The notes beneath the pieces were generated by a model. That model saw only the letters and a list, made by a program, of their open reading frames with translations, made no database searches and was not told where the DNA came from. This document shows, one piece after another, positions 4,092 through 16,098 of a DNA stretch of 64,000 nt. The stretch spans positions 6,498 to 70,497 of the forward strand of contig JBEKKP010000003.1 in assembly GCA_050010655.1 (NCBI GenBank). The letters are read 5' to 3'. Made by a program: the position numbers and the translations under genes. The DNA is from Candidatus Dormibacteria bacterium. GTDB lineage: Bacteria; Chloroflexota; Dormibacteria; Aeolococcales; Aeolococcaceae. The stretch's first letter is position 1. Each line of letters begins with the position of its first letter.

Positions 4092-5870
4092 GTGAATCCC
4101 ACCGACACGTCGGACCCGAATTATTTCCATCGGGTCGTCGATTGCCAGTGGGCCTGTCCGGCCCACACCAACGTCCCGGAGTACATCCGTCTGATCGCTC
4201 AGGGGCGGTACACGGACGCGTACATGTCCAACCGCGAATCCAACGTGTTCCCGGGGATTCTCGGGAGGACCTGCGATCGGCCGTGCGAGCCCGCGTGCCG
4301 GCGGACGAGGATCGACGGCGCGCCTGTCGCGATTTGCCGCCTCAAACGCGTCGCGTCCGATCTGCGCGGCGATATCGAGGATCGCCTCCCGGTGATTCCG
4401 ACGAACAAGAACGGGCGGCGGGTCGTCTGCGTCGGCGCCGGACCCGCGTCACTCACGGTCGCCAACGACCTCATGCCGCTCGGCTACGACGTGGTCATCC
4501 TCGAGCAGCACGAGACCGCGGGTGGCCTCATGCGGACCAACATCCCGGCGTTCCGCCTGCCTGCCGAGGTGCTCGACGAGGAGATCGCCACGATCGTCGA
4601 CATGGGCGTCGACCTCCGGCTCAACACGCCGGTCTCGAGCCTTCGGAGCCTGCTCGCGCAGGACTTCGATGCGGTGTTCATCGGCACCGGGGCGCCGCGA
4701 GGCAAGGATCTCGACATTCCCGGACGTCACGACAGCGACCGCATCCATATCGGCATCGACTGGCTCGAATCGGTCGCCTTCGGACACACCGAGAAGATCG
4801 GCGAGCGCGTGCTGATCATCGGCGTCGGCAACACGGCGATGGACTGCTGCCGCTCGTCGCTACGCCTCGGTGGCACCGCCATCAAGGTGATGGCGCGGCG
4901 TCCGCGCACCTTCTTCAAGGCTTCGTCATGGGAGCTCGAGGACGCGGAAGAGGAGGGTGTCGAAATCCTCGTCAACCACGCTCCGACCCGTTTCGTCATC
5001 GAGGACGGCAAGCTCGTCGGCATGGAGTTTCAGCGGCTCGAATGGGATGACCAGGCGCGCCGCTCGACGGTCATCGACAGCGTGGTGATCCCGTGCGACG
5101 ACGTCATCCTCGCCATCGGTCAGGAGAACGCCTTCCCCTGGATCGAGCGCGATCTCGGCCTCGAAGTCGGTGACTGGGACATGCCGGTGGTGGACCCCGT
5201 GACCTTCCAGTCCTCGCTCCCCGGTGTCTTCTTCGGCGGCGACTCGGCGATGGGCCCGAAGAACATCATCTGGGCGGTCGAGCACGGTCATCAGGCCGCT
5301 ATCTCGATTCACAACCATTGCGAAGGCATCGCGGTCACGTCCCGGCCGCCGCAAGGCGTCAACCTCGTGAGCCAGAAGATGGGGCTCACCGAGTGGAGCT
5401 ACAACAACGACTACAACCCGTCGAGCCGGCAGAAGATGCAACACGTCGAGCTGACGCACCGGTTCCAGAGCATCGGCACCGAGGTGGAGGTGGGGTTCTC
5501 CGCAGAGCAGACCGCGCGCGAGGTGCAGCGCTGTCTGAACTGCGACATTCAGACCGTCTTCGCTGCGCCGCTCTGCATCGAGTGCGATGCGTGCATCGAC
5601 ATCTGCCCGGTGCAGTGCCTGACCATCACCGAGAACGGTGACGAGGCCGACCTGCGCACGCGGTTGTCGGCTCCCGCGAAGAACCTCGACCAGGCGCTGT
5701 ATGTCTCCGCAGCACTGCCCCAGACGGGACGCGTGATGGTGAAAGACGAGGACCTCTGCGTGCATTGCGGCCTCTGCGCCGAGCGTTGCCCAACTGCCGC
5801 GTGGGACATGCAGAAATTCGAGCTCCTGCTCCCGCTTGCGCTCCTCACCCCGATTCCGGTGGCGACCTGA
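4092..5870 (+). CDS. glutamate-synthase beta-subunit-like NAD(P)H:FAD oxidoreductase fused to a C-terminal 2x[4Fe-4S] ferredoxin domain
   Basis: GTG start. N-terminal GltD-type Fe-S region (CPAHTNVPEYI...CDRPCEPAC), then a VCVGAGPASL dinucleotide fold and a second Rossmann motif GVGNTAMD. C-terminal CLNCD...CIECDACIDICP and CVHCGLCAERCP ferredoxin motifs. Stop lies 1 nt before korA. Confidence 0.75.
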   Translation: MNPTDTSDPNYFHRVVDCQWACPAHTNVPEYIRLIAQGRYTDAYMSNRESNVFPGILGRTCDRPCEPACRRTRIDGAPVAICRLKRVASDLRGDIEDRLPVIPTNKNGRRVVCVGAGPASLTVANDLMPLGYDVVILEQHETAGGLMRTNIPAFRLPAEVLDEEIATIVDMGVDLRLNTPVSSLRSLLAQDFDAVFIGTGAPRGKDLDIPGRHDSDRIHIGIDWLESVAFGHTEKIGERVLIIGVGNTAMDCCRSSLRLGGTAIKVMARRPRTFFKASSWELEDAEEEGVEILVNHAPTRFVIEDGKLVGMEFQRLEWDDQARRSTVIDSVVIPCDDVILAIGQENAFPWIERDLGLEVGDWDMPVVDPVTFQSSLPGVFFGGDSAMGPKNIIWAVEHGHQAAISIHNHCEGIAVTSRPPQGVNLVSQKMGLTEWSYNNDYNPSSRQKMQHVELTHRFQSIGTEVEVGFSAEQTAREVQRCLNCDIQTVFAAPLCIECDACIDICPVQCLTITENGDEADLRTRLSAPAKNLDQALYVSAALPQTGRVMVKDEDLCVHCGLCAERCPTAAWDMQKFELLLPLALLTPIPVAT

Positions 5871-5871
5871 C

Positions 5872-7689
5872 ATGGCGGCAGAGCATTTCGAGCAGACCCG
5901 CAGCAAGGTGAACGACTTCGCGCTGAAGCTCGCGAACGTCAACGGCACCGGCTCGTCGAGCGCGAACAACCTGCTGATGCGTTCGATCTTCCGGATGGGC
6001 GTGCCGGTGTCCGGCAAGAACCTCTTCCCTTCGAACATTCAGGGACTGCCCACCTGGTACGAGATCCGCGTGAACAAGGACGGCCACGTTTCCCGCGCCC
6101 GCGAGTACGACCTCATGGTGGCGATGAACGGGCAGACCTACGCGCGCGACATCGCCGAGGTGGCGGGCGGCGGATTCACGATGTACGACTCGTCATGGCC
6201 GCTCGACCGCGACCTGATCCGCGAGGACGTGACCTACCTCGGCGTGCCGCTCGCCGAGCTGTGCAACGACGAGTTTCGCGGTCCGCGCGAGCGCATTCTC
6301 ATGAAGAACATTGCGTGCGCGGGAGCGCTCGTCGCGATGCTCGGCATCGACATGGACGTGATCGCGCAACTGCTCACCGAGCAGTTCGCAGGCAAGGATC
6401 GACTCCGCGAGTCCAACCAGCGAGCGCTCCGTCTCGGCTACGACTTCGCGACGTCGCATTTCGACTATCCACTCCCGTGCCGGATCGAACCGATGAACGC
6501 GACTGCCGGTTCCATCCTCATCGACGGCAACACCGCGGCGGCACTTGGATGCGTGTACGCGGGCGCAACAGTTGCGGCCTGGTATCCGATCACACCGTCG
6601 ACGTCGCTGATGGACGCATTTGCCAAGTACTGCGCCAAATTCCGGCGCGATCCGGTGACCGGTCAGAACAACTACCTCGTGCTGCAGGCCGAGGATGAGC
6701 TTGCCGCAATCGGCATGGTGCTCGGCGCGTCGTGGGCCGGAGCACGTGCATTCACGTCGACATCGGGGCCAGGAATATCGCTCATGCAGGAACTGCTCGG
6801 CATGGGCTACTACGCGGAGATCCCAGCAGTGGTGTTCGACGTGCAGCGCGTCGGCCCGTCGACGGGGATGCCCACACGCGTGCAGCAGGCCGACATTCTG
6901 GCGTGCGCGTATGCGTCGCACGGCGATACCAAGCACATCCTGCTGTTCCCTTCGAGTCCGGCGGAGTGCTTCCAGATGGCACCTGTCGCCTTCGACCTCG
7001 CGGAGCGATTCCAGACACCGGTCTTCGTGCTGTCCGACCTCGACATCGGTATGAACGACTGGGTGAGCCCCGCACTCGAATGGGACGACTCGTATGTGCC
7101 CGATCGCGGCCGCGTCCTCGACGCAGGCGACCTGCGCGAGCTCGAGGTCTTCCACCGTTACGAGCCAGCCGATACGGAGTCGGTCGCGGCGCGCACCCTC
7201 CCCGGCGTGAGCGAGCTCGGCGCATATTTCACGCGCGGCTCGGGTCACACCATCGAAGGTGCGTATACCGAATATCCCGAGGAATACCAGGCCGTCCTCG
7301 ATCGCCTCGCGCGCAAGCACACGGCCGCTGCGGAGCACACCCCTGCGCCGCTCGTGGACCAGCGCGCACATTCCCCGCTCGCGATCGTGACCTTGGGCAG
7401 TTGCGAGCTCGCCGTCCTGGAGGCGATCGAGATCCTCGCAAAACAGGGGATCGCCGCCGATTACATGCGCATCCGTGGCTTTCCATTCGGCGCCGGCGTG
7501 CGCGCGTTCCTCGATGATCACGAGACGCTCGTTGTCGTCGAGCAGAACCGCGATGCCCAGTTGCGCACTCTGCTCACCCTCGAGACACCCGTTCCGAAGG
7601 AGAAGCTGCGGTCCGTTCTGGCGTACGGGGGCTACCCGCTCAGTGCAGACGATGTCGTCGACGGCGTCGTCAAAATCGTGGGGGCCTGA
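5872..7689 (+). CDS. korA: 2-oxoglutarate:ferredoxin oxidoreductase alpha subunit (gamma-alpha fusion)
   Basis: KorA/PorA-like sequence throughout (SGKNLFPSNIQGLPTWYEIR..., GCVYAGATVAAWYPITPSTS..., QAEDELAAIGMVLGAS). The ATG at 5872 lies 1 nt after the upstream stop. Confidence 0.85.
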   Translation: MAAEHFEQTRSKVNDFALKLANVNGTGSSSANNLLMRSIFRMGVPVSGKNLFPSNIQGLPTWYEIRVNKDGHVSRAREYDLMVAMNGQTYARDIAEVAGGGFTMYDSSWPLDRDLIREDVTYLGVPLAELCNDEFRGPRERILMKNIACAGALVAMLGIDMDVIAQLLTEQFAGKDRLRESNQRALRLGYDFATSHFDYPLPCRIEPMNATAGSILIDGNTAAALGCVYAGATVAAWYPITPSTSLMDAFAKYCAKFRRDPVTGQNNYLVLQAEDELAAIGMVLGASWAGARAFTSTSGPGISLMQELLGMGYYAEIPAVVFDVQRVGPSTGMPTRVQQADILACAYASHGDTKHILLFPSSPAECFQMAPVAFDLAERFQTPVFVLSDLDIGMNDWVSPALEWDDSYVPDRGRVLDAGDLRELEVFHRYEPADTESVAARTLPGVSELGAYFTRGSGHTIEGAYTEYPEEYQAVLDRLARKHTAAAEHTPAPLVDQRAHSPLAIVTLGSCELAVLEAIEILAKQGIAADYMRIRGFPFGAGVRAFLDDHETLVVVEQNRDAQLRTLLTLETPVPKEKLRSVLAYGGYPLSADDVVDGVVKIVGA

Positions 7690-7691
7690 CC

Positions 7692-8741
7692 ATGCCATCC
7701 ATCGTCAAACCCGTGGTGACGCATCCCGGACTCGAACGCAACGCGCTCGGTTTGACGATTCGTGACTACGAGGGCGGCATGTCGACGTTGTGCGCCGGCT
7801 GCGGCCATGACTCGGTCACCGCCGCAATCACGCACGCCCTCTGGGAGAGCGACACGCCACCGCACATGATCGCCAAGTTGAGCGGCATCGGCTGCTCCGC
7901 CAAGACCGCCGCGTACTTCGCTCGCGGCGCGCATGGGTTCAACGGCTGTCACGGCCGCATGCCACCGATCGCCACCGGAGCGAGCGCCGCCAACCGCGAC
8001 CTGCTGTGCATCGGCATCTCCGGTGACGGCGATTCGTTGTCGATCGGCCTCGGCCACCTCGCGCACCTGGTGAGGCGCAACGTGCGCATGGTCTATGTCA
8101 TCGAGAACAACGGCGTGTACGGGCTGACCAAGGGCCAGTTCTCCGCGTCGGCAGATATCGGTTCCACCACCAAGCGCGGCGAGGCCAATCATCTGCAGCC
8201 CATCGATCCGATCATGCTCGGGCTCTCGATTGGCGCGACATTCCTCGCACGTGGATTCTCGGGCGACAAGCGCCAGTTGGTGCCGATCTTCCGCGCGGCA
8301 ATGGCCCATCGCGGGCTCGCGATCATCGACGTCATCTCGCCGTGCGTCACGTTCAACGACCACGAGGGCTCGACCAAGAGCTATCTCTTCACGCGTCAGC
8401 ACGACGTGCAGATGACGGTCACCGATTTCGTGCCACCGGCTGAAGAGATCTCGGCAACGATCCCCGCCGAAGGCGTGGTCAGCATTCCGATGCACGACGG
8501 CGCGACGTTGCGCTTCCGCAGTGTCCCGGACGGCTACGACCCCACAGACCGGATGGCCGTCATGGAGCACCTGATGGCGTCGCGCGGCCGCGGAGAGATC
8601 GTGACCGGGCTCCTGTACATCGACGAGCAGTCATCCGATCTGCACGAGCTCGGCAACACCACCGCGACACCGCTGACGCAGGTGCCGTACGAGCAGCTCA
8701 CCCCGGGTTCGGCGGCGCTCGCAGGTATCGGCTTCCGCTGA
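7692..8741 (+). CDS. korB: 2-oxoglutarate:ferredoxin oxidoreductase beta subunit (TPP-binding)
   Basis: TPP-binding beta subunit motifs CAGCGHDSV...GIGCS...GDGDSLSIGLGHLAHLVRRNV...IENNGVYGLTKGQ. Start is 2 nt after the korA stop. Confidence 0.85.
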   Translation: MPSIVKPVVTHPGLERNALGLTIRDYEGGMSTLCAGCGHDSVTAAITHALWESDTPPHMIAKLSGIGCSAKTAAYFARGAHGFNGCHGRMPPIATGASAANRDLLCIGISGDGDSLSIGLGHLAHLVRRNVRMVYVIENNGVYGLTKGQFSASADIGSTTKRGEANHLQPIDPIMLGLSIGATFLARGFSGDKRQLVPIFRAAMAHRGLAIIDVISPCVTFNDHEGSTKSYLFTRQHDVQMTVTDFVPPAEEISATIPAEGVVSIPMHDGATLRFRSVPDGYDPTDRMAVMEHLMASRGRGEIVTGLLYIDEQSSDLHELGNTTATPLTQVPYEQLTPGSAALAGIGFR

Positions 8742-8766: not shown

Positions 8767-9990
8767 TTACGCAGGGAGCGCGTTGCGTGCTTGCATCAAG
8801 AACGTCCGCTCGACGGCGTTGGAAGTGAGCTCGACGGCGAGGACGTACTCGGCACGCGCGTCATCGTTGCGGCCGACCCTGCTCAGCAGATCGGCCCTCA
8901 CGGCGTGGAACAAGTAGTACTCGCCGAAGTCGAGACGGTCCACTGCGTCCAGCGCCACTGAGGCGCCGCGCACCTCCGCGAGGGCGACCGCACGGTTGAG
9001 CGCAACGACGGGCGTCGGGTTCAGCGCGAGCAACTGGTCGTACAGCTGGAGGATCTGTCCCCACTCGGTGTCGGCTGCGCGCGCAGCATCGCTGTGGACC
9101 GCACTGATCGCGGCCTGGATCTGATACGGACCAGGCTGATTGCGCCGCAGGCACTCGCGGACGATCTGCTGGCCCTCTTCGATGAGCGAGCGATCCCACA
9201 TCGAACGATCCTGATCGTCGAGGAGCACGAGATCTCCGCTCGCCGATGTCCGGCTGCGCTGGCGCGAGTGGACGAGCAGCATGAGCGCGAGCAGGCCGAG
9301 CACCTCGGGCTCGTCCGGCATGAGCTCGGTGAGGATCCGGCCAAGGCGGATCGCCTCGACGCACAGGTCTGCGCGATCAAGGCGCTCGCCGGAGCTCGCC
9401 ACGTACCCCTCGTTGAAGATCAGATAGACCACCGTGAGCACCGCGCTGAGCCGGGCTGCAAGTTCCGTCGATGCCGGCACGCGATACGGGATTCCGGCGT
9501 CCCGAATCTTGTGCTTGGCTCGCACGATGCGCTGCGCCATGGTCGCCTCGGGGACGATGAATGCACGCGCGATTTCCGTGGTCGAGAGACCACCCAGCAA
9601 CCGCAGTGTCAGCGCGATCTGTACCTCCGTGGCGAGTGCGGGATGGCAGCAGGTGAAGATCAGCCGGAGGCGCTCGTCGCGCACTGGTCCGTCGTCGATC
9701 GGGTTGCGTTCCGCCTGCATCAGCGCGGCCTTGGCGTAGCGATCAGCTCGCGCGGCGTCACCGCGAAGACGATCAATTGCACGGCGCCTTGCCGTGGTGA
9801 TGATCCAGCCCGCCGGGCTGGGAGGCAGTCCCGTCTCCGGCCACCGCTGCACCGCAACGGTGAACGCTTCCTGGACTGCCTCCTCAGCGATGTCGATGTC
9901 CCCGAACGATCGGACGAGCACGGCCACGGCACGCCCGAACTCCTCGCGGAACACACGCTCGATCTCCGAATCACTCACCCGCGGCATGTC
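8767..9990 (-). CDS. ECF-type sigma-70 factor with a long C-terminal extension
   Basis: Sigma-70 region 2 and region 4 ([15 protein letters not shown]...; [36 protein letters not shown]) followed by an extension of about 230 aa. The start at the internal Met [13 protein letters not shown] lies immediately after the upstream YciI-like gene. Confidence 0.75.
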
Positions 9991-9995
9991 TGGAA

Positions 9996-10355
9996 TCAGG
10001 CGTCCGGCGGCGCATCCTGGAACGGCCGGACCTCGATCGGAGCGACACACGCGACAGTCGCCTTGCGCGCCCACGCGAGCGCGGCGTCGAGGTCCTCCGC
10101 CTGAATGATCCAGAAGCCGCCGATGCGCTCCTTGGCCTCTGCGTACGGGCCGTCGGTGGTGACCACAGCGCCGTCCCTGACGCTCACCACCGATGCCGTG
10201 CTGTCGTTGTGCAAGCCGCCGGCGAAGATCCAGGCGCCCGCCGCCATCAGCTCCGCGTTGATCACATCGACGTCGCGGATACTCTTGGCCATCACCTCGG
10301 GCGCCAACGCTGGGCCCTTGTCTGCGTGATAGACGCTGAGCATGTACTGCTTCAT
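9996..10355 (-). CDS. YciI-like (YCII-related) domain protein
   Basis: [14 protein letters not shown]...[21 protein letters not shown] has the Dabb/YciI fold signature. It pairs with the downstream ECF sigma factor as a typical operon. Confidence 0.7.
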
Positions 10356-10499
10356 CGGGGTTCCTCCTTGGCACGAGCCCTTTGGCGAGATCGTGCCGTC
10401 TGCTTCTGGTGGCCGGTCATCCGGCCCGTCACCTCCTATACGGAACTCATGACCGGAAATCGACACGCCAAGGATGAGCAAATCGTTCCTCGAGCCGGA

Positions 10500-11669
10500 T
10501 CAACCGGACTGGCGATCGGTCAGCCGCTTCTCGATGCCGTCGAGGACGAGGCTCACGCCCTGGTCGGCACGCCACGCCGAGTCGTCGTCCGCCGAACCCG
10601 AAGCCGGCACCGCGGAGCGTGTGACCGGTGCGGCCGTGTCCAGGGTCACGCGCACGCAGCCGCTGTACACCGCGAGGTCGTAACGGTCGTCGCTGCGCAT
10701 GGGCGTCGACGAATCCCACTGCATGTCGGACTTCACGGCGCGGATCGGCTTGTCGTCGAGCCGGACTTTCACCGAACCGGAAGAGACCATCGCGTGAGCA
10801 GCCGTATTCGCGGGACGGTGCAGGGTGACCCCGACGATGCCGCTATTGACGCGGATGGGCACCACACCCACCGGAGCCGGCAGCGTGCACGTCACATTGC
10901 CGGCGCCGCTGTCGAGCTCGATACCGCTGACGCGCAGTCCGGAAAGGTCGAGCACCGTGTTCCACGTGCCGCCGTGGATCTTGAAATACCACGTGTAATT
11001 GGGGCTCAACTCCACTGCGCCGTGATCGCCGCCTCGGCGGTTCTTCACCAGCACCAGGCTGCCCGGGCGGACCTCCACTGACGCGGCACCGCCCCCACCG
11101 GTTGAGGTTGCGATGTCGACGGTGTCCGACTGGGCGGCGCGGACGAGCACTTTCCATGAGCCCGAATCGATGGCAAGAGTCATCGCCTGGCCACCGGGCC
11201 CGCGGCTGGCTGCCGGCTGTTCCGTGAACGCCGACACTGCGGATTCGATTACGAGCGTGGCCGCCGCTCCTTCGGCATCCGCAAGACCCGCGGCTGAAAG
11301 AAGGCGGGCAAGGTCGCGGGTGAGGCGGCTGCGCTGCACGACGGCGGGGGACCCGAGCACCACGGTCGCGGCGCCCCGGTGCTGCTTCAGATATCGCGAG
11401 AGCTCAGCGCAGACCGCAACCACTTGCGGGCGCCACGCCGATCCCGGCGCAGGTACCGCCACACGGTCGAGGACGGACTCCGCCACCAATTCGAGGAGTT
11501 GATCCTTGTCGCGGAGATGCCAATACAAGGAAGCGGCCTTCACGCCGAGCCGGTCGGCAAGGGCGCGCATCGAGAGGCCTTCGACACCGACGGCATCGAG
11601 CATTGCCAGCGCTCCCTGGATAACCGTTTCGCGGTTGAGCCGGGATCCCTCCGTCTCCTGACGGGCCAC
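10500..11669 (-). CDS. TetR-family transcriptional regulator fused to a C-terminal beta-rich repeat (toastrack/DUF4097-like) domain
   Basis: N-terminal TetR HTH (LSMRALADRLGVKAASLYWHLRDKDQLL). The C-terminal ~200 aa carry repeated SGxVxVxL strands (SGIVGVTLH, SGSVKVRLD, SGCVRVTLD, GNVTCTLP). Confidence 0.65.
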   Translation of the reverse strand: MARQETEGSRLNRETVIQGALAMLDAVGVEGLSMRALADRLGVKAASLYWHLRDKDQLLELVAESVLDRVAVPAPGSAWRPQVVAVCAELSRYLKQHRGAATVVLGSPAVVQRSRLTRDLARLLSAAGLADAEGAAATLVIESAVSAFTEQPAASRGPGGQAMTLAIDSGSWKVLVRAAQSDTVDIATSTGGGGAASVEVRPGSLVLVKNRRGGDHGAVELSPNYTWYFKIHGGTWNTVLDLSGLRVSGIELDSGAGNVTCTLPAPVGVVPIRVNSGIVGVTLHRPANTAAHAMVSSGSVKVRLDDKPIRAVKSDMQWDSSTPMRSDDRYDLAVYSGCVRVTLDTAAPVTRSAVPASGSADDDSAWRADQGVSLVLDGIEKRLTDRQSG

Positions 11670-11720
11670 AGGCGTGTCCTCCCTTGCGGCGGCCAGCCGG
11701 CCGCGAATGGTTAGGGGCTT

Positions 11721-11759
11721 GACGTGCCTAACAACGTTAGTCTAGCATCTAGCACGTCA
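11721..11759. promoter_or_regulatory. candidate operator: inverted repeat GACGTGC-N25-GCACGTC with internal CTAAC-AAC-GTTAG palindrome
   Basis: Found by reading the divergent intergenic region between the TetR-fusion gene and the ABC exporter. Confidence 0.3.
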
Positions 11760-11794
11760 CCGTTAGACGCTATTTCACTCGGATGGTGTTAGAG

Positions 11795-12745
11795 ATGAAT
11801 CCTACGCTGGAGGCCGCCGACCTCGTCAAGACATTCGGCAAGACACGGGCTCTCGACGGCCTCAGCCTCACGATGCAGCCGGGCGAGGTCCTGGCCCTGC
11901 TCGGTCCGAACGGCGCGGGCAAGACGACGTTCGTCAATCTCGTCGCAACGCTGATCCGGCCCGACCAGGGAACGCTTCGGGTCCAGGGCGTCGACGTGGC
12001 GCGCAATCCGGGCGCGGTCCGGCGGAGCATCGCCCTCGCGGGGCAGTCTGCCGCCGTGGAGCCAACCATGACGGGCCGCGAGAACGTGGCGATGGTGGCG
12101 CGCCTCTTCGGCGCCTCCGCCGGCGATGCCCGCCGCGATGCCGCCGCCGTCATCGAGCAGATGGGCCTCACTGACGCGGCCGACCGGCTCGTCCGCACGT
12201 ACTCGGGCGGCATGCGCCGCCGCCTCGACCTCGGAGCGAGCCTCGTCGCCCGCCCTCGCCTGCTGCTCCTCGACGAGCCGACCACCGGACTGGATCCGCG
12301 CAGCCGCCTCGAGCTGTGGGATGTCATCCGCTCGCTCGTCGCCAACGGCACTGATGTCCTGCTCACCACCCAGTACCTCGACGAGGCCGATCATCTCGCG
12401 TCACAGATCGCCATCATCGATCACGGCCGGGTGATCGCATCGGGCACGCCCCGGGAGTTGAAGCGCCTGGCCGGACGCAACGTCGTCGAAGTCCACGTCA
12501 GGGACAGCTCCGCACTGGATCGTGTCGCCACAACGCTGATGGCGATCGGCGATGGGCCGGCAACCATCGACGTGCCGACTCGAAGCGTGCGCGTTGCGCT
12601 CAGCGCCGACACCGAACGCGTCTTCGCCGCACTGCGGCCGCTTGACGACACCGGCATCGCAATCGATGAGGTTTCCGTTCGCCAGCCCACGCTCGATGAA
12701 GCGTTTCTTGCCCTCACGGGCGCACCCAAGGAGGAGGTGGCATGA
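11795..12745 (+). CDS. ABC transporter ATP-binding protein (DrrA-like)
   Basis: Walker A GPNGAGKTT, signature YSGGMRRRL and Walker B LLLLDEPTTGLD. The ATG at 11795 is preferred over the in-frame ATG at 11783. Confidence 0.85.
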   Translation: MNPTLEAADLVKTFGKTRALDGLSLTMQPGEVLALLGPNGAGKTTFVNLVATLIRPDQGTLRVQGVDVARNPGAVRRSIALAGQSAAVEPTMTGRENVAMVARLFGASAGDARRDAAAVIEQMGLTDAADRLVRTYSGGMRRRLDLGASLVARPRLLLLDEPTTGLDPRSRLELWDVIRSLVANGTDVLLTTQYLDEADHLASQIAIIDHGRVIASGTPRELKRLAGRNVVEVHVRDSSALDRVATTLMAIGDGPATIDVPTRSVRVALSADTERVFAALRPLDDTGIAIDEVSVRQPTLDEAFLALTGAPKEEVA

Positions 12746-13551
12746 GCATCGCACTCGCACCGCAACGCGGCAACGCCGCCGGTATCTTCGTCTCGACCGG
12801 GCAGATTGCACGCCGCGTGCTGCTCAAGTTCATCCGGTCTCCGCAGCTCGTCGTGGTCGGGACCTTGCAGGGCGCCATGTTCCTGCTCATCTTCCGGTAC
12901 GTGTTCGGTGGAGCAATCGCGATCAAGGGCATCAACTACGTCGACTTCGTGGTGCCCGGATTCATCACCACCGGCGTGCTCTTCAACGCGATGTACGCGT
13001 CGGCGGGAATGGCCGAGGACATGAGTGCGGGGCTGATCGCACGGCTGCGATCACTGCCGATTCCGCGCAGCGCGGTACTCGTGGGCCGTGCAGTCGCCGA
13101 CACAGTGCTCCAGGCATGGGGACTCGTCGTCACGGTCGGGATCGGTTTTCTCGTGGGCTTTCGCATCCACGGCAGCATCGGTGGCGCGCTCGCGGCCGCG
13201 GCGATGGTGCTGCTCTTCGGCTTCGTCTTCGAATGGGTCTTCGTGCTCATGGGCATGCTCGCCGGCTCGGCACAAGCGGCCCAAGGGTTTGCGCTGATCG
13301 TGTTCCCGTTCACGTTCGTGTCATCGGCATACATCCCGGTGGCGACGATGCCGTCGTGGATGCAGGGATTCGCCGAGAATCAGCCGTTGACGGTCATGGT
13401 GAACGCCGTGCGCTGCCTCACTGAGGGCGCGCCTGCCGAAGCGTTGCTCGGTCACCCCACGTCGTATTTCGTGGTCCGCTCGTTGATCTGGTCGGTCGGA
13501 ATCGTCGCCGTCTTCGCACCCCTCGCCGTCGCGAGATACCGGCGCGGCTAG
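12742..13551 (+). CDS. ABC-2 type transporter permease (DrrB-like)
   Basis: Six predicted TM helices. Coupled to the ATPase by a 4-nt overlap. Confidence 0.8.
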   Translation: MSIALAPQRGNAAGIFVSTGQIARRVLLKFIRSPQLVVVGTLQGAMFLLIFRYVFGGAIAIKGINYVDFVVPGFITTGVLFNAMYASAGMAEDMSAGLIARLRSLPIPRSAVLVGRAVADTVLQAWGLVVTVGIGFLVGFRIHGSIGGALAAAAMVLLFGFVFEWVFVLMGMLAGSAQAAQGFALIVFPFTFVSSAYIPVATMPSWMQGFAENQPLTVMVNAVRCLTEGAPAEALLGHPTSYFVVRSLIWSVGIVAVFAPLAVARYRRG

Positions 13552-13635
13552 ATGGACGCGCCCTCGCGGCGCAGCGTTTCTTGCGGCCCGGGTCTGGTTG
13601 TGTGCACCGCATGCGACCGGCTCGGGCCGTTTGCT

Positions 13636-14613
13636 TTACCCGATGAGCAGGGCGGCGACCGTTGCGGGATCGAAGTTTCCGCCGCTGAGCACGATCACCG
13701 TTGGGTGTTCTGCACTGCCGGCAGGCACTGTGCCGGTGAGATACGCAGCCAGCGCCAGCGCGGCGGTGGGTTCGATGGCCAGCTTGAGACGCGTCCACGC
13801 CACACGCAGCGCGTCCTCGAGTTCGCGCTCCGAGACGGTGACGATGTCGCGGACAAGCCCGCCCGCCACCATCACCTCGAAATTACGATTGCCGATCGAT
13901 CTGGATTTCACTCCCTCGGCAAGCGTTGCCGGGTCGGAGTCGAGTGAGTGCAGCGCCCCGGTCCGAAGGCTCTCTGCAGCGTCGGCGGCGCTCTCGGGCT
14001 CCACACCGATGATCGCGGTATCCGGCGAGAGCACCGACAACGCCAGGGCGATGCCGGAGATCTGACCGCCACCGCCCACTGGCACAACAACGGCCCCGGG
14101 AGCCGGAGTGTCCTCGAGGATCTCGAGCCCGACGGTGCCCGCCCCGTGCACGACGTCCCAGTCGTCATATGGATGTATGAGTCGCAGGCCCTGCGAGGCC
14201 GCGATCTCCTCGGCAATCGCCTCGCGGTTGTCGTACGTGACGCCGTCGGTCACGACCGTCGCGCCGAACGATCGGATCCCTGCGACCTTCGCAGGGGTTA
14301 CGCCATACGGGACGACGATGGTTGCCGGGAGACCGACCGCGCGGGCCGCGCACGCGAGCGCCTGACCGTGGTTGCCGGAGCTGTGGGTGACGACGCCGCT
14401 GACGTCAGGTTCCCGCTCGATCAGGCACAGCACCGCGTTGAATGCGCCGCGCGCTTTGAACGACCCGGTGAGCTGCAGCGACTCCGGCTTGACCATCAAG
14501 CCCGGGGCGATGTCCGTTCGCAGGAGTGGCGTGCGCCGCACGTGGCTTCTGATCCGCGCAGCGGCGCGGCGAATTTCCGCGAGGTGCGTCTCGGACTGCG
14601 CGTCCTCTGTCAC
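13636..14613 (-). CDS. PLP-dependent threonine/serine dehydratase (catabolic type, no ACT domain)
   Basis: SLQLTGSFKARGA (PLP lysine), HSSGNHGQALA and GGGGQISG motifs. 325 aa. Confidence 0.8.
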   Translation of the reverse strand: MTEDAQSETHLAEIRRAAARIRSHVRRTPLLRTDIAPGLMVKPESLQLTGSFKARGAFNAVLCLIEREPDVSGVVTHSSGNHGQALACAARAVGLPATIVVPYGVTPAKVAGIRSFGATVVTDGVTYDNREAIAEEIAASQGLRLIHPYDDWDVVHGAGTVGLEILEDTPAPGAVVVPVGGGGQISGIALALSVLSPDTAIIGVEPESAADAAESLRTGALHSLDSDPATLAEGVKSRSIGNRNFEVMVAGGLVRDIVTVSERELEDALRVAWTRLKLAIEPTAALALAAYLTGTVPAGSAEHPTVIVLSGGNFDPATVAALLIG

Positions 14614-14619
14614 TGACGG

Positions 14620-16098
14620 TCAGGACGAGACGGCGACGGGAATCTCCAGCGCGAGCTTGTCCATCTCGAGCTGCGCCGGGACGTCCACCGGGTACGAGCC
14701 GGTGAAACACGCAAAACAGAAGCCGTTGCCATCGGGTTGCCCCATCGCGCGGCGCAGGCCCGCGAGGCTGAGATAGCGAAGCGAATCCGCTCCGAGCATC
14801 GCGCCGATCTCACGCTCGGTGTGGCCCGCGGCGATGAGCTCACGTCGCGACGCGATGTCGATGCCCATGAAACATGGCCATGCAATCGGCGGGGACGCGA
14901 TACGCATGTGCACCTCGCTCGCTCCCGCGCGGCGCAGTTCATCGATGATGCGACGCGATGTCGTGCCGCGCACGATCGAGTCGTCCACGAGCACCACGCG
15001 GCGGCCCTCGAGCACGTGGCGCATCGGATTGAACTTCAAGCGGATGCCCGCCTCGCGCAAACGCTGTGTCGGCTGGATGAACGTGCGCGTGATGTAGCGC
15101 GACTTGATCATCCCTTCCGCGAATGGCAATCCCGCCTGTTCGGCGTAGCCGATCGCCGCGGGCGTGCCGCTATCCGGCAGCGTGATGACGATGTCTCCGT
15201 CAGCCGGCGCCTCACGCGCGAGCTCGCGACCCATGTGGCGCCGCGACTCGTACAGGGACTTGCCCATCATCACGCTGTCGGGCCTCGCGAAGTAGATGAA
15301 CTCGAATGAACACATCGCGCGGTGCGCGGCGGTGCGCTGAATCTTGGTGCTGCGCATTCCGGATGCATCGACGGTCACGATTTCTCCGGGCTCGATCTCG
15401 CAGATGAACGTCGCACCGACGACATCGAGCGCGCAGGTTTCGCTGGCCATCACATAGCCGGTGCCGCCGGGTGCATCGATATCGCCGAAGCGGCCGAGGC
15501 ACAACGGGCGGATACCGAGCGGATCGCGCGCGGCGACGAGTGAGTCCTTGGTGAGGAACACGAGGCAGTACGCGCCCTCGACACGCGGCAGCGCCTCCGC
15601 GAGCGCCTGCTCCAGCGTGTCGGCCTCGGTCTGCGCGATCAGCGCACCGAGCACCTCGGTGTCACTCGTGGTCTCGAAATCGAAGCCCTTGGTGATGAGC
15701 TCATCGCGCAACTTGGTGGCGTTGACGAGGTTGCCGTTGTGTGCGATCACGACCGGGCCGATCGTAGGGTGCTCGACCGAGATGGGCTGCGCGTTGAGCA
15801 GCCGCGCGCTGCCGGTGGTGCTGTAGCGCGTGTGGCCTATTGCGATGTTGCCGCGGAGCCCGTCGATCGTCTCCTGGTCGAACACCTGGGACACGAGGCC
15901 CATTTCCTTGCAGATGCGAATTTCGCGACCGTCGCTGACCGCAATGCCCGCGGATTCCTGTCCGCGATGCTGCAACGAGTACAGGCCGAAATACGTCAGG
16001 TTGGCGACGTCCTCGCCCGGGTGGAACACCCCGAAGACGCCGCATTCCTCATGGAGATGGTCGTCGTCGATGGCGTTCAATCCGGCCTGATCACTCAC
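14620..16098 (-). CDS. purF: amidophosphoribosyltransferase
   Basis: N-terminal propeptide followed by CGVFGV (Ntn nucleophile), the PRTase motif [13 protein letters not shown] and C-terminal Fe-S cysteines. Confidence 0.9.

Follow-up and report, generated by a model that had tools for sequence, protein, structure and literature searches.

Gene organization of the locus

The window analysed here is a 64-kb stretch of DNA in which the gene for a TetR-type regulator stands divergent from a two-gene operon for an ABC-2 exporter. The features of the locus are listed below.

10500–11669, minus strand: regulator gene encoding a 389-aa protein with predicted TetR-toastrack architecture (list of open reading frames; translated from the GTG at 11669 to the stop codon at 10500–10502)
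11490–11642, minus strand: DNA-binding domain, residues 10–60, TetR_N helix-turn-helix (Pfam PF00440)
11220–11489, minus strand: helical regulatory core α4–α8, residues 61–150, first half of a TetR_C_1-type domain
10629–11186, minus strand: predicted inserted toastrack (DUF4097-type single-stranded β-helix), residues 162–347 (AF2 model)
10563–10628, minus strand: variable disordered linker, residues 348–369, at the position of TetR α9 (pLDDT, entropy)
10506–10562, minus strand: C-terminal helix, residues 370–388, predicted equivalent of the TetR α10 dimerisation helix (AF2; TetR(A) alignment)
11719–11748, plus strand: sigma-70-like promoter of the ABC operon, TTGACG (–35), 18-nt spacer, TAGCAT (–10) (promoter scan)
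11728–11740, no strand: candidate operator palindrome CTAAC-AAC-GTTAG (uniqueness in the window, conservation in orthologs)
11762–11766, plus strand: auxiliary GTTAG half-site in the 5′ UTR, 26 bp past the GTTAG of the operator
11783–12745, plus strand: DrrA-like ABC ATPase gene (TIGR01188, PF00005; DrrA1-3_C weak)
12742–13551, plus strand: ABC-2 type permease gene, with a 4-nt overlap at the ATPase stop codon (PF01061, E 9e-24)

The ATPase scored 328 bits against the TIGR01188 drrA model, above the cut-off of 312.45, and together with the PF01061 permease it constitutes the DrrAB-type ABC-2 exporter that a sequence-only reading of this DNA had named. As in the DrrAB daunorubicin-type exporters (TIGR01188/PF01061), two genes form an operon with overlapping stop and start codons and the ATPase belongs to the drrA subfamily, but the permease reached 63.9 bits against the drrB model, below its cut-off of 223. 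To our knowledge, which draws on a literature search that was not exhaustive, no described DrrAB system is placed under a toastrack-bearing regulator. The alignment of orthologs suggests that translation of the ATPase probably starts at the ATG at 11795, preceded by the Shine-Dalgarno sequence GGATGG at 11781–11786. With this start the intergenic region is 125 bp long, as the sequence-only reading had it, but with the ATG at 11783 it is 113 bp. On the other strand, the GTG start of the regulator gene is preceded by GGAGG, the reverse complement of CCTCC at 11678–11682.

A YciI and ECF-sigma (DUF6596) pair lies downstream of the regulator gene. The pair is missing at more distant orthologous loci, and we discarded it as a component of the system; its position had been noted correctly before, but a functional link was not supported. 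Genes for a histidine kinase, a response regulator, PspA or PspC were found neither in the window neighbourhood nor at the orthologous loci.

Domain architecture of the regulator

The TetR_N profile PF00440 matched residues 17–60 of the 389-aa protein (E 4.5e-10; 39.6 bits, cut-off 24), which identifies the N-terminus as a TFR helix-turn-helix. The recognition helix includes VKAASLYWHLRDK, is near-invariant across the family and is compatible with the same palindrome being found duplicated before the genes of a second clade, as described below. The TetR_C_1 profile PF02909 matched residues 73–149 through positions 2–80 only of its 146, at 21.4 bits (cut-off 21); α4–α8 and α10 are present, α9 is lost and the β domain interrupts the helical domain.

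Residues 162–347 were all-β in the AF2 model and had the toastrack fold, so that structure prediction bore out a toastrack-like domain, which the sequence-only reading had recognized next to the TetR helix-turn-helix. That reading had taken the last ~200 residues as the β region and as a C-terminal fusion. The β domain does occupy residues 162–347, but a linker (348–369) and a helix (370–388) come after it, and the fusion topology has to be replaced by an insertion. Because the linker and an α10-like helix follow the β region, the toastrack is, as judged from the model and the alignments, an insertion in the α8–α9 loop of the TetR C-domain, from which the chain returns as α10. The linker had pLDDT below 50 at residues 354–367 in the AF2 model, entropy in the family alignment was maximal there, and the distant members L084, L085 and L087 retain an α9-like segment at this position. 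The C-terminal helix carries the motif GVSLVLDGIEKRL, in which L374, D377 and G378 are invariant. After the insert the regulator aligns to residues 167–201 of TetR(A), as does L087, where a match to the toastrack structure 4QRK sits between two TetR segments (E 9.5e-5), and in another member, P0157, the TetR_C_1 match is split into two separate stretches.

In TetR, α9 forms the lid over the inducer pocket of the partner subunit. The modelled toastrack of ~185 residues is placed so that it stands in for this lid, that is, for the α8–α9 loop and α9, a replacement judged from the insertion point in the chain; how the toastrack is oriented against the TetR core is uncertain (full-length pTM 0.56). 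Hydropathy revealed no TM-like segment in the regulator (maximum KD19 1.43), and the toastrack lies within a DNA-binding protein; on both counts the regulator is predicted to be cytoplasmic and its toastrack intracellular.

Toastrack domains (DUF4097, DUF2154 and DUF2807; LiaF, LiaG, VraT, YvlB and 4QRK) are defined in PMC11237479, where 4QRK serves as the reference structure, and the β domain of the regulator conforms to that definition. The PF13349 (DUF4097) profile scored 12.2 bits on the domain in the window, below the gathering threshold of 22.9, and gave weak matches in 6 of 15 family members (best E 6.4e-4); by fold and profile scores, the domain is classed as a divergent toastrack subfamily. 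It shares with toastrack proteins the repeated S/D-S-G-x-V rungs, the predicted intracellular location and the repeated occurrence alongside regulators of transcription and ABC transporters. In contrast to them, the regulator lacks a membrane anchor as well as PspC and LiaI-LiaF-TM modules, neither PspA nor a two-component system is encoded nearby, and the domain sits inside a one-component regulator instead of C-terminal to TM segments. A Lia/Vra-type module (LiaF, LiaG, VraT) would bring TM segments and LiaRS/VraSR-type genes or PspA, none of which was present, and the NCBIfam LiaG model gave E 0.034 and 13 bits, with its cut-off at 285.

Conservation and distribution of the family

The sequence-only reading had proposed a search for the same architecture in other genomes, and it was found: more than 120 full-length homologs (56–100% identity) share the uninterrupted architecture of ~388 aa. 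Loci were examined in 80 species-level genomes, each with one TetR-toastrack copy, at 29–98% identity. Clade 1, the clade of the window, comprised 34 loci and clade 2 (37–45% identity) 46. As far as these sequences indicate, the family is confined essentially to MAGs of Dormibacterota, an uncultured phylum across which the design is conserved. Invariant columns made up 41% of the DNA-binding domain within the clade and 35% across clades. The toastrack, with 22% against 6% for the helical core, ranked second in conservation among the parts of the protein.

We considered whether the β region might be no functional domain but an annotation or assembly artefact (a two-gene read-through) or a decaying insertion. 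Some orthologs in long-read MAGs are indeed cut to 305 aa (L027, L028 and P0095), but these truncations are isolated frameshifts in genes that are otherwise 89–98% identical. The comparative data contradict such an origin, because the architecture runs uninterrupted through more than 120 protein clusters and the 80 genomes, with the insert as well conserved as stated above and the TetR α10 helix following it in frame, and we give an artefact hardly any credence. Separately, matches of ~205–250 aa resembling stand-alone toastracks were recovered; at least one, P0178, comes from a frameshift-ridden long-read contig and lies by ABC fragments, and we did not count these matches as an architecture of their own.

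The same toastrack subfamily was also found fused to MarR regulators (e.g. P0184, P0166 and P0201), with profile E values of 1e-17 to 1e-23. These MarR-toastracks were aligned as a set of 20 sequences (A4), and their loci, fetched with a 6-sequence subset, come from unassigned metagenome contigs. Both kinds of regulator share the motifs LPxPxGxVP, RP and DRY(D/E), and the MarR-toastracks are likewise one-component regulators that mostly diverge from DrrA-like ABC-2 exporters. They differ in their DNA-binding domain, a winged helix of the MarR type, and in the toastrack, which is simply fused to the C-terminus and not inserted.

Genomic context of the regulators

The divergent ABC pair was kept in all 34 clade-1 loci, with permeases 70–98% identical, while the opposite flank changes. 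The pairing of regulator and exporter, already suggested from the window alone, is supported by this synteny of orthologous loci. In 42 of 46 clade-2 loci the regulator gene faces a SAM-methyltransferase gene, an MFS pump gene or both, and no ABC genes were found within 3.5 kb of the regulators at any of the 46. Among the MarR-toastracks, 20 of ~29 assessable loci (~70%) adjoin DrrA-like ABC exporters, one faces a P450, and ~8 have no adjacent ABC genes.

These contexts bear on whether the regulator might sense the transporter itself. The toastrack would then dock to the DrrAB-like exporter from the cytoplasmic side, for instance on the DrrA C-terminal domain, transport activity would set whether the repressor is held or released at the membrane complex, and the regulator would bind no small molecule. 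PMC11237479 proposes that toastracks are intracellular, membrane-proximal docking surfaces and describes operons in which the gene for a toastrack protein is accompanied by genes for a permease and an ABC ATPase and by a regulator gene of the GntR or RHH type. Docking would also fit the sharing of one toastrack subfamily by two unrelated DNA-binding families that mostly lie by DrrA-like exporters (34/34 for TetR, 20/~29 for MarR), and a toastrack more conserved than the helical pocket region. Against it stand the clade-2 loci with a methyltransferase and/or MFS pump in place of an ABC pair, the MarR-toastracks facing a P450 or standing apart from ABC genes, and the fact that TetR and MarR regulators next to exporters are common anyway. 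We consider such docking unlikely.

The intergenic region and the predicted operator

The palindrome CTAACAACGTTAG at 11728–11740, to which the sequence-only reading had drawn attention, is unique in the window, with 0.01 occurrences expected by chance. It recurs with at most one mismatch in 34 of 34 clade-1 orthologous intergenic regions, the flanks of which have diverged. In clade 2 the palindrome is present twice, 35–37 bp apart, upstream of 44 of 46 genes, and relatives often show the extended form CCTAAC-N3-GTTAGG. The promoter scan returned one site, against 0.0 expected, and the palindrome falls within its 18-nt spacer; in the anchored alignment both the –35 TTGAC and the –10 TAnnnT were conserved. 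Conservation and position in the promoter support only the inner palindrome CTAAC-N3-GTTAG as the predicted conserved operator.

The sequence-only reading had nested this palindrome in a symmetric operator with the outer arms GACGTGC and GCACGTC 25 nt apart. The arms of the outer inverted repeat, TGACGTGC (11720–11727) and GCACGTCA (11752–11759), are 24 nt apart, and its centre at 11739.5 is 5.5 bp off that of the inner palindrome (11734). The outer repeat is intact in close relatives only and its left arm overlaps the –35, and we rejected it as an operator. One apparent compensatory change was seen in L083, and a minor role of the repeat is possible.

The auxiliary GTTAG was found at +26 or +27 bp in 30 of the 34 clade-1 loci, including distant ones with diverged flanks. 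GTTAG recurs three to four times in the intergenic region, each time spaced by exactly 26 bp, where 0 would be expected by chance. Spaced sites of this kind, a palindrome plus a GTTAG 26 bp away in clade 1 and two palindromes at a fixed 35–37 bp in clade 2, would suit an architectural role, in which the toastrack provides dimer–dimer contacts for a higher-order repression complex and the inducer binds in the helical pocket. The sheets of the β-helix offer flat interaction surfaces (PMC11237479) for such contacts. However, 26 and ~36.5 bp correspond to about 2.5 and 3.5 helical turns, which would place neighbouring dimers on opposite faces of the DNA, unfavourably for direct contact, and of the GTTAG copies the third and fourth either fall between Shine-Dalgarno sequence and start or are present in close relatives only. 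In addition, the classical Tn10 tet system, which the two operators of clade 2 resemble, has two operators and no extra domain. We find an architectural role distinctly improbable.

A sigma-70-like promoter for the regulator gene was found neither by the scan nor by eye in the alignment. Rfam returned only a chance-level speF fragment (E 0.48) for 9000–14000, and folding gave no leader structure in the ABC 5′ UTR (11752–11800; z = –0.29). This z-score led us to abandon a sequestration of the Shine-Dalgarno sequence by the CACC...GGTG segments.

Relation to known repressors and proposed mechanism

Like TetR(A–D), ActR, PamR2 and ChdA, which are efflux-pump repressors with a PF02909 domain, the regulator has a helix-turn-helix with the LYWH recognition-helix motif, a divergent exporter gene and a palindromic operator of ~15 bp over the exporter promoter. 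It differs from them in the 185-residue toastrack and 22-residue linker that take the place of the α8–α9 loop and α9. In addition, its partner is an ABC-2 exporter and not a TetA-type MFS pump, and the operator sequence differs. The regulator scored 84.3 bits against the TetR equivalog NF010319, for which the cut-off is 265, and the positions which we take to contact tetracycline and Mg in TetR(D) (His64, Asn82, Phe86 and His100) are absent by our reading of the alignment. As far as such comparisons tell, it is a relative of the tetracycline repressor class and not a tetracycline repressor.

We think it probable that the regulator represses in the classical way, by blocking its operator, and that its signal enters via the toastrack. 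By analogy with the TetR-family pump repressors, we infer DNA binding, repression and induction: a cytoplasmic dimer of the TetR(A–D)/ActR class would bind the 13-bp palindrome CTAAC-N3-GTTAG and, since this lies between the –35 and –10 of the DrrAB-like exporter promoter, would block RNA polymerase. The regulator might also limit its own expression, because the same 113–125-bp region precedes its own gene; this is only a guess, since a promoter of the regulator gene was found neither by scan nor in the alignment. The DNA-binding head, the α4–α8 core and the α8/α10 dimerisation helices match their counterparts in an ordinary TetR. The toastrack would act as the signal-input module, with a small molecule or a partner protein binding at or next to the former mouth of the pocket, and the signal would pass via the α8/α10 bundle to the spacing of the helix-turn-helix heads, so that the operator is released and the exporter turned on. 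Alternatively, the inducer may still be bound by the helical pocket and the toastrack may have another task. Neither the sequence nor the neighbourhoods point to a ligand or partner, and the neighbourhoods differ between clades, with ABC genes, MFS pump/methyltransferase genes or, for one MarR fusion, a P450.

Discussion

Literature on toastrack/DUF4097, on Dormibacterota together with TetR and on domain insertion in TetR, in a search that covered subscription journals thinly, yielded no description of a TetR-toastrack, and the toastrack survey PMC11237479 mentions neither TetR nor MarR. The TetR-toastrack design does not appear to have been described previously.

TetR repressors are the classic example of one-component sensors and are used throughout synthetic biology, and the signal that they receive is nearly always a small molecule bound inside the helical pocket. 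The present family would be a natural one in which a whole β-helix replaces the lid of the pocket and leaves the dimer interface in place, and it would show a new route by which input can reach the TetR scaffold, at the α8–α9 loop. Toastrack domains, for their part, are central to the Lia/Vra systems of cell-envelope antibiotic stress. A soluble toastrack regulator with a sharp operator and a clear output promoter would make the role of the toastrack experimentally accessible. More tentatively, and with considerable doubt, the toastrack could be a self-contained sensory module, used in at least two unrelated scaffolds (TetR lid insertion and MarR appendage), that reports the state of the ABC-2 exporter or the inner membrane surface and does not bind a drug as the classical pocket does. 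In that case, soluble TetR-toastracks with their 13-bp operator would provide the first simple read-out of what toastracks, such as those of LiaF, VraT, YvlB and human FAM185A, target. For Dormibacterota, a phylum represented here only by MAGs, the family offers a first well-supported assignment of a regulator to a predicted operator and its target, an exporter or a detoxification operon.

Regulator architecture

The ORF list confirmed that the regulator lies on a real minus-strand ORF, which is preceded by a Shine-Dalgarno (SD) sequence, GGAGG (CCTCC on the plus strand, 11678-11682).

10500-11669, minus strand: TetR-toastrack regulator ORF, 389 aa, GTG start

Pfam assigned residues 17-60 to TetR_N (E 4.5e-10) and residues 73-149 to TetR_C_1, of which only profile positions 2-80 of 146 were covered. 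The closest NCBIfam model was the tetracycline repressor, at 84 bits versus a cut-off of 265, and the protein is not itself one of these repressors. LiaG also matched, faintly (E 0.034), over residues 250-305.

The sequence-only reading had described a C-terminal beta-repeat fusion. In phmmer searches against PDB sequences, residues 10-159 align to TetR(A) residues 3-156; a weak alignment, of residues 346-382 to TetR(A) 167-201, includes the alpha10 motif QG-x-x-L-x-x-DG-x-x-KR. An AlphaFold2 model built with 42 homologs as input (mean pLDDT 81) predicted a helical part ending at residue 149, an all-beta domain spanning 162-347, disorder at 348-369 and a terminal helix at 370-388. The beta domain itself was thus recovered, but it is not terminal: the alpha10-like helix comes after it, indicating an insertion instead of a fusion. 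The clearest evidence for insertion is the order of matches in L087, the locus of a distant member (29% identity). Plain sequence searches matched its residues 21-168 to TetR(A) 9-159, residues 236-359 to the toastrack structure 4QRK (E 9.5e-5) and residues 399-431 to TetR(A) 165-201, corresponding to alpha9-alpha10. This order, the model and the alpha10 alignment therefore place the beta domain within a TetR_C_1-type domain, in the alpha8-alpha9 loop. In TetR structures, the two subunits of the dimer meet through alpha8 and alpha10, and alpha9 serves as the lid on the partner subunit's inducer pocket. An alpha9-like segment is retained in L084, L085 and L087, and has decayed to a variable linker in both main clades.

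The inserted domain is a sequence-divergent toastrack fold. The toastrack/DUF4097 likeness noticed from the sequence was borne out, with L087 matching 4QRK. Its sequence divergence shows in PF13349, which matched 6 of 15 family members weakly (best E 6.4e-4). PF13349 scored 12.2 bits on the window protein versus a cut-off of 22.9, and a profile search of PDB sequences with the inserted domain gave no match. The paper defining the toastrack superfamily unified DUF4097, DUF2154 and DUF2807, gave 4QRK as a reference structure, and predicted toastracks to be intracellular docking surfaces (PMC11237479). No TM-like stretch was found in the window protein, which shares the toastrack fold with Lia/Vra modules but is without membrane anchor, two-component system or PspA.

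Family distribution and target genes

Profile matches agreed with the gene order first read from the sequence, with an ABC ATPase and ABC-2 permease divergent from the regulator and YciI and ECF sigma genes downstream. The opposite-strand neighbour is a DrrA-type ATPase (TIGR01188, 328 bits versus a cut-off of 312), accompanied by the permease. Only close relatives of the window organism show synteny for the ECF sigma and YciI genes, so the pair is not part of the regulator-exporter unit. The YciI-domain gene and then the ECF-type sigma factor with a C-terminal DUF6596 occupy 8767-10481 on the minus strand; for both, the longest ORF starts too far upstream, the public calls in the syntenic locus L002 being 118 and 406 aa. 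Housekeeping genes flank at 5836-8741 and 13636-16098, encoding a PALP-family enzyme, a purF-like amidophosphoribosyltransferase and a 2-oxoacid:ferredoxin oxidoreductase of two subunits, with POR and TPP_enzyme_C domains in L002. Taken with two 96-98% identical loci, L008 and L027, they assign the window to a Candidatus Dormibacterota chromosome.

A search for the same architecture in other genomes was productive: about 388 aa long, it is common to more than 120 protein clusters (56-100% identity), and a scan with one genome per species returned 187 relatives, of which 80 were kept. Almost all of these are Candidatus Dormibacterota MAGs, 'Chloroflexi CF_xx' soil MAGs included, and no MAG name is repeated among the 80 loci. 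Public annotation calls the family proteins plain AcrR/TetR regulators. In two long-read MAGs, orthologs sharing 89-98% identity with the window protein stop at 305 aa (L027 and L028, 3501-4418; P0095), a pattern that suggests frameshift errors or recent pseudogenisation rather than another architecture.

All 34 clade 1 loci (at least 51% identity) carry the divergent ABC ATPase and permease, 68-98% identical, and the flank away from the ABC genes is variable. Clade 2 (37-45% identity) was assessed at 46 loci, none with ABC genes within 3.5 kb; its divergent neighbour is a SAM-methyltransferase in 26 and an MFS transporter in 26, with either or both in 42/46. In L039-L081 the regulator and methyltransferase/MFS genes have LigD on one side and SSB on the other. 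In three outliers (29-39% identity) the regulator faces a different ABC ATPase. Docking of the toastrack on the exporter is an unlikely alternative to the reading favoured below, weakened by clade 2 regulators being without a neighbouring ABC transporter.

Probable operator and exporter promoter

The regulator-exporter intergenic region contains the following elements:

11719-11748, plus (ABC) strand: sigma-70-like promoter, TTGACG (11719)-18 nt-TAGCAT (11748); promoter scan, 0.0 expected
11728-11740, inside the promoter spacer: palindrome CTAACAACGTTAG, unique in the window, 0.01 expected
11720-27 and 11752-59: outer arms TGACGTGC and GCACGTCA, 24 nt between

Scanning 11600-11850 revealed no second sigma-70-like promoter. 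The 34 clade 1 intergenic regions were aligned with the palindrome as anchor. The -35 TTGAC, both 5-nt palindrome arms (spacer free), the -10 TAnnnT, the SD GGA(T/G)G and the start ATG are conserved, and the remaining sequence drifts. In clade 2, two full palindrome copies 35-37 bp apart occur in 44/46 upstream regions; these double operators (L039-L081) precede the regulator gene by ~20-150 nt. A palindrome shared by both clades fits the recognition helix VKAASLYWHxRD, which is near-invariant across clades. Comparative evidence thus strongly supports CTAAC-N3-GTTAG as the family's putative cognate operator, as had been suspected of the inner CTAAC-AAC-GTTAG. The outer GACGTGC/GCACGTC arms, also read as a symmetric operator with N25 between them, probably do not serve as one: outside close relatives they are not intact, the midpoint between them is displaced 5.5 bp from the palindrome centre, and the -35 box overlaps them.

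Four plus-strand copies of GTTAG follow one another in exact 26-bp steps, at 11710, 11736, 11762 and 11788 (0 expected by chance). Of 34 orthologs, 30 retain the 11762 copy at +26 or +27, distant ones included; the 11788 copy falls between SD and start codon, and the 11710 copy is confined to close relatives. A spacing of 26 bp is about 2.5 helical turns. Bridging of spaced operator sites is another alternative reading and quite improbable, weakened by 26 and ~36.5 bp both being half-integral numbers of helical turns.

The longest ABC ATPase ORF begins at ATG 11783, and a conserved SD, GGATGG, lies at 11781-11786. Both this SD and the ortholog alignment indicate ATG 11795 as the true start, giving 316 aa; public calls for the orthologs are likewise split between 316 and 320 aa. 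A perfect tandem duplication, TCTAGCA-TCTAGCA (11741-11754), overlaps the -10 in the closest relatives only.

Toastrack conservation and MarR fusions

Within clade 1, 22% of toastrack columns are invariant and entropy is 0.82 bits, versus 6% and 1.21 bits for the helical core alpha4-alpha8; across clades, too, the toastrack is the more conserved of the two. This higher constraint suggests a conserved interaction surface on the toastrack.

The toastrack profile matched 1974 cluster representatives at E <=1e-3, including more distant insert-bearing TetR proteins, one with TetR_C_1 in two stretches, and a family of ~360-aa MarR fusions with the same toastrack subfamily (L088 and L093-L124 on metagenome contigs; P0163, P0166, P0171, P0184, P0201). 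A DrrA-like ATPase (41-69% identical to the window ATPase) and ABC-2 permease adjoin MarR-toastrack genes in 20 of ~29 metagenome loci with sufficient flank. Of these pairs, 19 are divergent and the one in L112 is co-directional; for P0201, the facing gene encodes a cytochrome P450. The module has therefore been recruited by two regulator scaffolds, usually but not always with ABC-2 exporters. P0178, a 216-aa toastrack that seems to stand alone next to DrrA and ABC-2 gene fragments (L089 2562-5651, long-read contig), probably represents the end of a regulator fusion split by a frameshift, and some ~200-aa 'stand-alone' matches may be similar artefacts.

Proposed mechanism and significance

By its HTH and core the protein belongs to the TetR family and would work like TetR/ActR-type pump repressors. 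Following the TetR paradigm, a dimer would bind the palindrome in the -35/-10 spacer and block exporter transcription until a signal releases it. In the reading we favour, that signal, a small molecule or a protein, would be received by the toastrack at the former pocket-lid site and relayed through alpha8 and alpha10 to the HTH heads. The proposed new element is this signal entry point in the TetR scaffold. The literature searched, whose coverage is incomplete, yielded no account of a toastrack in a TetR or MarR regulator, and such regulators are provisionally considered newly described. The TetR-toastrack proteins offer an accessible way to study what toastrack domains do, and they show where the TetR scaffold naturally accepts an inserted domain.
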